Source: Eledone cirrhosa
Lineage: Eukaryota
DNA: 64,000 nucleotides
Direction of reading: 5' to 3'
NCBI GenBank assembly: GCA_964016885.1
Contig: OZ024750.1
Span: 12,896,001-12,960,000, forward strand
The position numbers and the translations under genes were made by a program. This document shows, one piece after another, positions 1-64,000 of this stretch; within the stretch, counting starts at the first letter, position 1, and each line of letters starts with the position of its first letter. A model generated the notes under the pieces. The model was not told the DNA's origin and searched no databases. It was given only the letters and a program-made list of their open reading frames with translations.

Positions 1-94
1 GTGACTGAAGCATTCTTTGGCTCTTTCCATGATATTATCATAGAATCACAGCTTTCAACATCAACAACAATATTCTCAGGAGGTGATGGAGCTC
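1..94 (-). CDS. FN3 exon, 5' part (truncated by window edge)
   Basis: ttttag acceptor at 96-95; (G)[31 protein letters not shown]. Confidence 0.85.

Positions 95-64000: not shown

Follow-up and report, generated by a model that had tools for sequence, protein, structure and literature searches.

The FN3 exons found in a 64,000-nucleotide stretch of DNA from Eledone cirrhosa (contig OZ024750.1, positions 12,896,001-12,960,000; hereafter the window) are, judged by comparison with public models, a segment of the octopus connectin/titin gene, which is already known and present in the databases. What appears undescribed is the architecture, which departs from every textbook titin: an Ig-free FN3 run, built as a three-domain repeat (X-Y-Z) nested in a nine-domain super-repeat. 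The preliminary description of this DNA had proposed a separate protein with a titin-class, Ig-free FN3 run unlike the repeats of titin, twitchin and projectin. The run and its difference from those repeats are borne out, whereas the separate protein gives way to a segment of a connectin/titin orthologue, flanked by many Ig domains before and after it and followed by a kinase.

Six-frame translation, together with a profile made from the window's own FN3 ORFs, gave 52 complete FN3 exons on the minus strand between positions 14,839 and 63,488. Two further FN3 exons cross the window edges (63,984-64,289 and -199 to 94), leaving a 3' end at 63,984-64,000 and a 5' part at 1-94, both on the minus strand, inside the window. 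All of the 52 complete exons exceed the Pfam fn3 cut-off, and I-set was not among the best five Pfam families listed for any of them (three of the 52 had more families). The window exons have AG/GT ends, are in phase 1-1 and measure 294-306 nt each, and phase 1-1 is found in 145 of the 146 single-domain FN3 exons across the whole locus. Based on Pfam fn3 matches and periodicity, 28 exons at 40,606-63,488 form regular X-Y-Z triplets in nine-domain super-repeats: 63,183-63,488, 62,334-62,636, 61,384-61,689, 60,447-60,752, 59,384-59,686, 58,633-58,938, 58,075-58,380, 56,999-57,301, 55,760-56,065, 54,976-55,281, 54,238-54,540, 53,284-53,586, 52,503-52,808, 51,799-52,101, 50,533-50,838, 49,694-49,999, 48,766-49,068, 47,644-47,949, 46,927-47,232, 46,032-46,334, 45,478-45,783, 44,821-45,126, 44,141-44,443, 43,343-43,648, 42,916-43,221, 41,984-42,286, 41,325-41,627 and 40,606-40,911. 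They are followed by 23 more diverged exons with weak periodicity at 22,851-40,186, recognised by Pfam fn3, periodicity and collinearity with the end of a snail protein, which likely represent an older, C-terminal part of the run: 39,887-40,186, 38,967-39,269, 38,198-38,503, 37,479-37,781, 36,865-37,170, 36,111-36,416, 35,255-35,554, 34,308-34,607, 33,641-33,946, 32,946-33,248, 31,785-32,090, 30,883-31,185, 30,412-30,705, 29,711-30,013, 29,011-29,316, 28,123-28,419, 27,318-27,623, 26,549-26,848, 25,819-26,118, 25,204-25,509, 24,515-24,811, 23,487-23,786 and 22,851-23,156. The last complete exon (14,839-15,144) lies downstream of a stop exon described below; it matches Pfam fn3, and the best diagonal with the protein of the snail Bulinus ends here, on the last FN3 domain of that protein.

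An Ig profile built from the 28 I-set matches of the locus found 100 Ig pieces in the flanks (E<0.05), including split half-domain exons, and none at the same threshold in the introns of the FN3 run, in agreement with the earlier claim that no Ig exon is interspersed there. The count of at least 54 consecutive FN3 domains in the window is valid only for an isoform that skips the stop exon at 17.6-18.2 kb; for an isoform of the RefSeq type it falls to 51 complete domains and one partial. When the model was extended into the flanks the Ig-free run proved longer than first described: an FFF-II-FFF-II entry is followed by 145 FN3 domains without Ig from 128,893 to -4,204, with 90 of them upstream of the exon at 63,984-64,289.

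The flanks were examined over 500 kb upstream and 300 kb downstream of the window in the 3.0 Gb genome, and all positions are given in window coordinates. The gene order from 5' to 3' is a SEC14-like exon, Ig clusters, giant PEVK-like exons, tandem Ig, the FFF-II-FFF-II entry, the FN3 run, II-FN3-kinase and Ig. SEC14-like exons lie at 401-403 kb, and the one at 402.6 kb matches kalirin SEC14 (E=2.7e-5) as well as the start of XP_029652063.1. No Pfam family was matched by the SEC14-like exons, a genome search gave no Pfam match to spectrin repeats in this locus, and a genome search with CRAL_TRIO_2 gave no match anywhere in the genome and is hence uninformative on the locus. Ig clusters are found at 330-345 and 277-307 kb and tandem Ig at 140-190 kb, with about 59 Ig domains upstream of the FN3 run when counted by Ig ends. 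There are also very long E/T/V/I-rich ORFs (4,726, 2,361, 1,818, 1,498, 1,472, 1,263 and 1,118 codons); nine long ORFs upstream comprise 15,228 codons in total, with a P+E+V+K fraction of 0.42-0.47 in seven of the nine, and the giant E/T/V/I-rich ORFs are candidate alternatively spliced spring exons. The 4,726-codon ORF is a single open frame of 14.2 kb at 216,404-230,581 (contig 13,112,404-13,126,581), adjoined by similar ORFs.

Beyond the exon that crosses the downstream edge of the window follow FN3, Ig, Ig, FN3 and kinase exons, the kinase lying at -7.3 to -10.1 kb. The Ig-Ig-FN3-kinase module, read from the genome alone, consists of nine in-frame exons encoding 557 aa without a stop; Pfam Pkinase is matched, and the motifs GxGxFG, AAK, HLDLKPEN and DFG are present. 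Further Ig pieces lie beyond the kinase, and among them is a 1,950-codon E/S-rich ORF (-120,103 to -114,254) that resembles an M-band insert, matches no Pfam family above cut-off and is of uncertain membership in the gene. No SH3 match was obtained in the locus among 93 scored candidates, in a search that an intron-split SH3 would escape. The coding sequence detected up to the stop exon amounts to at least 35,160 codons, excluding the SEC14-spectrin part, and the part downstream of the stop exon adds about 3,400 codons. The titin locus is followed directly, on its own strand, by a MYLK-type kinase gene (contig 12,671,000-12,676,000), and this kinase at 12.67 Mb matches 'Os_MYLK' in the accessible portion of the alignment in PMC12198301.

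The repeat structure of the run was quantified as the mean identity between domains at increasing distance. Over domains 6-147 it was 0.35 at lags 1, 2, 7, 10 and 11, rose to 0.47 at lags 3 and 6 and reached 0.61 at lag 9, compared with a maximum of 0.41 in 1,000 shuffles. The periods of chordate titin are absent from the octopus run, where lags 7 and 11 are at background (0.345 and 0.346) while lags 3 and 9 are high (0.471 and 0.606). For the 28 exons at 40,606-63,488 the identity was 0.335 at lag 1, 0.431 at lag 3 and 0.556 at lag 9, with shuffle maxima of 0.427 and 0.433. The periodicity persists when a near-identical block is left out (0.36, 0.52 and 0.58), and also inside the window (0.33, 0.40 and 0.45; shuffle maximum 0.38). 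The X, Y and Z classes can be told apart by their exon length, charge and linker (the domains of class X end in SPF), and over about 38 triplets the position-specific sequence classes are kept, with charges of +1.0 for X, -2.7 for Y and +0.5 for Z. The strict X-Y-Z order is lost near 40 kb.

The rod may have grown by tandem duplication, of three and later of nine one-domain exons, from a run of 10-14 domains such as is seen in other spiralians; duplication of blocks without frameshift is possible because the exon ends are in phase 1-1. Upstream of the window (66,000-87,700) there are four copies of part of a nine-exon block with 95-98% identical DNA, introns included. An assembly artefact was considered for this block and rejected, since DNA differences of 2-5% separate the copies and four of them are also present in the RefSeq model of the other octopus. 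By eye, the four near-identical copies carry each octopus species' own substitutions, which looks like concerted evolution. Six FN3 domains, or two triplets, share one exon at 112,439-114,361, the sole intronless place in the run, which likely arose by intron loss.

Between the 51st and the 52nd complete FN3 exon lies a phase-1 exon of 201 codons (18,211-17,604, minus strand) that is rich in S, H, Y, Q and T and ends in TAA. Acceptor and stop are present in the sequence, and the exon, which matches no Pfam family, would form the C-terminal tail of a kinase-less isoform. It is clearly homologous, by eye, to the C-terminus in the available parts of XP_029652063.1, a model that joins it to the exon at 22,851-23,156; the last 15 residues of XP_029652063.1 were not found in this DNA. 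An isoform of the RefSeq type has 142 consecutive FN3 domains (14,400 aa) and no kinase. Such an isoform would end at the 17.6-18.2 kb exon, and a longer isoform would skip this exon and reach an intact-looking kinase. As the RefSeq model leaves the run at the stop exon, the kinase-reaching transcript is only predicted. The three remaining FN3 domains and the kinase module are phase-compatible with the run. The median intron is 430 nt long, but those after the last regular exon measure 7.7 and 14.7 kb, making the link between rod and kinase less certain.

These long introns would fit a reading in which the FN3 rod and the downstream FN3-II-FN3-kinase-Ig part are separate transcripts of one locus and no chain contains both. 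We regard this as a serious possibility, if not quite the favoured one, and it is compatible with our best explanation. It agrees with the records, as far as their available parts go, in which XP_029652063.1 terminates on the stop exon and the kinase is listed under a different accession, XP_036371388.1, and with the rotifer, leech and snail models that end after the run without a kinase. The phase compatibility from the run into the kinase argues for a joint transcript, as does the Macrostomum protein PAA53510.1, where the run, II-FN3-kinase and six Ig are joined in one model, which may be a fused prediction. A weak candidate for a second terminal exon (11,478-11,635, minus strand; phase 1, 51 codons and a stop) was recognised from its acceptor and open frame. 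It follows the exon at 14,839, where the snail, leech and rotifer proteins end, and shows no similarity to the relatives' tails and no Pfam family; the tails of nine relatives gave no significant match in the window. Within the 14.7 kb intron there are broken ORFs at 3,100-5,950 (minus strand), which resemble endonuclease and reverse-transcriptase pieces of a non-LTR retrotransposon. A tandem minisatellite with units of about 40 bp and repetitive ORFs on both strands lies at 13,135-13,960, outside the gene.

The identity of the gene follows from several comparisons. The best PDB matches of the six-domain exon are titin A-band chains (E=6e-138), and the Ig-FN3-FN3 repeats of twitchin and projectin are absent from the octopus run. 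A separate twitchin gene, with Ig-FN3-FN3 repeats and a twitchin kinase, is present on contig C1 at 362.1 Mb, and the same contig carries an obscurin-like gene with two kinases at 44.3 Mb. The twitchin kinase of Eledone cirrhosa is nearly identical to that of O. bimaculoides, to which the titin-locus kinase is about 55% identical. A kinase-only tree of 32 rows gave no resolution at its base, and the longer Ig-Ig-FN3-kinase module was therefore used instead (20 rows; TTN-1, Sls and human titin not among them). In the module tree the twitchin clade (95/96) excludes the octopus gene, which stands beside the chordate titins and the Macrostomum protein without a resolved grouping with the chordate titin kinases. 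AU tests rejected a union with the mollusc twitchins (p=5e-6) and weakly rejected one with all twitchins (p=0.04).

The same gene has been deposited before. The octopus titin-like protein XP_029652063.1 is included, labelled Octopus vulgaris, in file S1 of PMC12063666, and octopus is absent from Table S1 of that paper. Compared by eye, the available parts of XP_029652063.1 have a SEC14-like start, an identically ordered Ig-free run and the same tail exon, and the number of file parts gives an estimated length of about 34,000-35,000 aa. The N-lobe of the kinase matches, again by eye, 'Os_CON' (XP_036371388.1) in the accessible part of the supplementary alignment of PMC12198301. An arrangement with SEC14-spectrin upstream of titin is called 'connectitin' (PMC12198301, in part), and we find its features in a SEC14-like exon 5' of Ig, in tandem Ig with PEVK-like sequence and in Ig-Ig-FN3-kinase after the FN3 domains, the latter from the genome only. 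The prediction that annotation would call the gene only 'titin-like' was correct for RefSeq XP_029652063.1. The gene is already assigned to Sls/titin or connectin in the data of two 2025 papers. XP_029652063.1 and Os_CON thus concern the same gene, but it is public as a RefSeq model and a tree tip only, and the run and its periodicity are undescribed in the accessible parts of those sources.

Seen in isolation the window contains only FN3, which could suggest an expanded twitchin or a cephalopod-specific protein that stands alone as an FN3-only scaffold. Either is very improbable: the same strand carries Ig, PEVK-like and SEC14-like exons upstream, which the RefSeq model joins to the run, there are relatives in other phyla, and twitchin is a separate gene and clade. 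Relatives were collected from 120 matches of the six-domain exon, 120 matches of the Lottia protein and cluster members, among database proteins of up to about 8,000 aa; 25 of 144 new rows were kept by score and DGGS count, low-scoring unnamed metagenome proteins being left out. The suggested restriction to cephalopods did not survive this comparison, as long Ig-free runs occur in oyster, limpet and snail, and short ones in rotifers, leech and flatworm. Bulinus has 40 FN3 domains without Ig, best aligned to octopus domains 109-148, the limpet Lottia has 17 with a lag-3 identity of 0.72, and the oyster titin XP_034304301.1 has about 27 complete Ig-free FN3 domains (counted by eye) in a model that breaks off inside a domain. 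The rotifers Rotaria, Adineta and Didymodactylos show Ig(n)-FFF-II-FFF-II-F14-stop, the leech Helobdella (II-FFF)n-II-F13-stop, Lineus (II-FFF)n and Lingula F14. In the flatworm Macrostomum, PAA53510.1 has (II-FFF)n and then two stretches of about 10 and about 14 FN3, separated by a 568-aa insert, before II-FN3-kinase and six Ig. A collinear register on the octopus run was obtained only for Bulinus (1.33 versus 0.95) and one Lottia piece (1.33 versus 1.16); the 13-14-domain runs of rotifers and leech gave no clear register (best mean Z 0.5-0.9). In named titins and twitchins FN3 runs are mostly 2-4 domains, and up to 6-8 in flatworm twitchins.

Ig-free runs are also found in Patiria (40), Saccoglossus (18-31), Diadema (12-15) and Ptychodera (15). 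The three-domain period was absent from the four tested (Patiria, two Saccoglossus and one Diadema), the mapped echinoderm and hemichordate runs match entry-type domains, and some adjoin twitchin-like Ig-FN3-FN3 repeats. They are likely separate, independent expansions, possibly located in twitchin. Unnamed metagenome proteins with Ig(n)-FFF-II-FFF-II-F8-stop show the shortest form of the same C-terminal module.

In the usual teaching, the A-band of titin consists of Ig-FN3 super-repeats, and in protostomes titin is split between an I-band protein and an A-band protein. The octopus is a protostome that has retained twitchin, and its I-band titin gene carries an FN3 region that equals the vertebrate A-band in length, lacks Ig and has its own periods of three and nine; this architecture bears on how one versus two titins arose. 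The surprise is limited by the presence of the gene in public databases. In their accessible parts, PMC12063666 describes two lophotrochozoan titins with 'more mixed' features and PMC12198301 places octopus connectin in trees, leaving open three scenarios for one versus two titins. As oyster and scallop models are drawn in PMC12063666, its Fig. 1A may show the FN3 run. The available parts of PMC5167519 and PMC12040844 contain nothing on an Ig-free FN3 run, and no description of an Ig-free or 3x3 A-band was found in the openly accessible full-text literature searched.

As to function, we consider it probable that the Ig-free rod of 142-145 FN3 domains runs along the myosin/paramyosin thick filament at its end and there anchors the Ig and PEVK-like spring of connectin/titin. 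By analogy with vertebrate titin, Sls and TTN-1, the N-terminus would be placed at Z material, the springs in the I-band and the FN3 rod on the thick filament. The rod would come to about 0.55-0.6 um if each domain adds about 4 nm. Thick-filament crowns are spaced 14.5 nm apart. Three and nine domains at this rise correspond to about 12 and 36 nm, with no clear fit to 14.5 and 43 nm, which counts against an anchor. In the vertebrate A-band titin has light meromyosin as its main binding partner, an 11-domain repeat that equals 43 nm and [N/Y]PF linkers by which FN3 tandems are held in extended form (PMC10665226, in part); the SPF end of the X domain, similar to this linker, may likewise favour an extended chain. 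Sls and TTN-1 reach the thick-filament end and C-terminal domains of TTN-1 bind myosin, although the binding piece is Ig and not FN3 (PMC9886278, in part), a further point against the anchor reading.

Squid thick filaments are 7.4 um long in the arm and 0.81 um in the tentacle (PMC4757648, in part). A rod of about 0.55-0.6 um therefore cannot measure half of the arm filament, and a single molecule spanning from Z-disc to M-band is unlikely by length for filaments of 7.4 um; a long grip on a tapered filament end would fit better than length-measuring. It has to be weighed whether the rod nevertheless sets thick-filament length, varied between muscle types by skipping of symmetric exons or nine-domain blocks. 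All exons are in phase 1-1 and skippable in frame, deletion of titin super-repeats shortens mouse thick filaments (PMC10665226, in part), and the squid filaments, ninefold apart in length, have nearly the same myofilament proteins (PMC4757648, in part). We find such a tunable ruler unlikely, because about 0.6 um is far below half of 7.4 um, albeit enough for half of 0.81 um, the available RefSeq model includes the exons collinearly, and the A-band length of Drosophila is not set by one spanning titin (PMC9886278, in part). The gene nevertheless offers a natural test of the ruler idea, as for the ninefold difference between cephalopod filaments no cause beyond paramyosin content is known in the accessible part of PMC4757648. 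Similarly improbable is a semi-rigid spacer or extensible element in long I-bands or an oblique lattice, anchored only at its end and with no myosin binding along its length. The lack of an obvious match between the 3- and 9-domain periods and the filament repeats would suit it, as would the mainly I-band position of Sls-type titins (PMC9886278, in part). The sequence classes and charges kept over about 38 triplets are what repeated binding would produce, and the I-band type in titin is pure Ig tandems, not FN3 (PMC10665226, in part). Returning to the thick-filament anchor, a bolder version, which we doubt, would have molluscs re-building a vertebrate-scale A-band titin independently. It would be one chain of more than 40,000 residues, longer than human titin, running from SEC14 to an active kinase by way of Ig/PEVK-like springs and an Ig-free 3x3 rod of 145 FN3 domains, with skipping or copy number of nine-exon blocks tuning filament length as the short squid-tentacle filaments need.

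Compared with known giant muscle proteins, the octopus gene shares with vertebrate titin (TTN) a SEC14-like part upstream, SEC14-spectrin in TTN, Ig and PEVK-like springs, a long FN3-rich region with super-repeats whose most similar copies lie mid-array, PF linkers, and II-FN3-kinase followed by Ig and unique inserts. It differs in the absence of Ig from the repeats, in periods of 3 and 9 where TTN has 7 and 11, in an alternative stop before the kinase and in a kinase with canonical catalytic motifs; the titin kinase is reportedly a pseudokinase. Drosophila Sallimus, C. elegans TTN-1 and crayfish I-connectin share the Ig and PEVK-like N-terminal body and the coexistence with twitchin/projectin. 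These proteins have only a short FN3-containing end of about 5-13 domains, Sallimus and I-connectin with an SH3 near the C-terminal Ig, unlike the 142-145 FN3 domains in octopus, whose gene is filed with Sls in PMC12063666 as far as its accessible data show. The oyster titin XP_034304301.1 (18,703 aa; Sls/Titin in Table S1 of PMC12063666) shares Ig, FFF-II-FFF-II, an Ig-free run and triplet-like repeats, and differs in its count of about 27 complete FN3 domains by eye, in an incomplete model, against 142-145. Twitchin and projectin share titin-class FN3 domains, a three-domain period and the II-FN3-kinase end, but their period contains Ig, and the octopus twitchin is a separate gene on C1 that falls into a separate clade.
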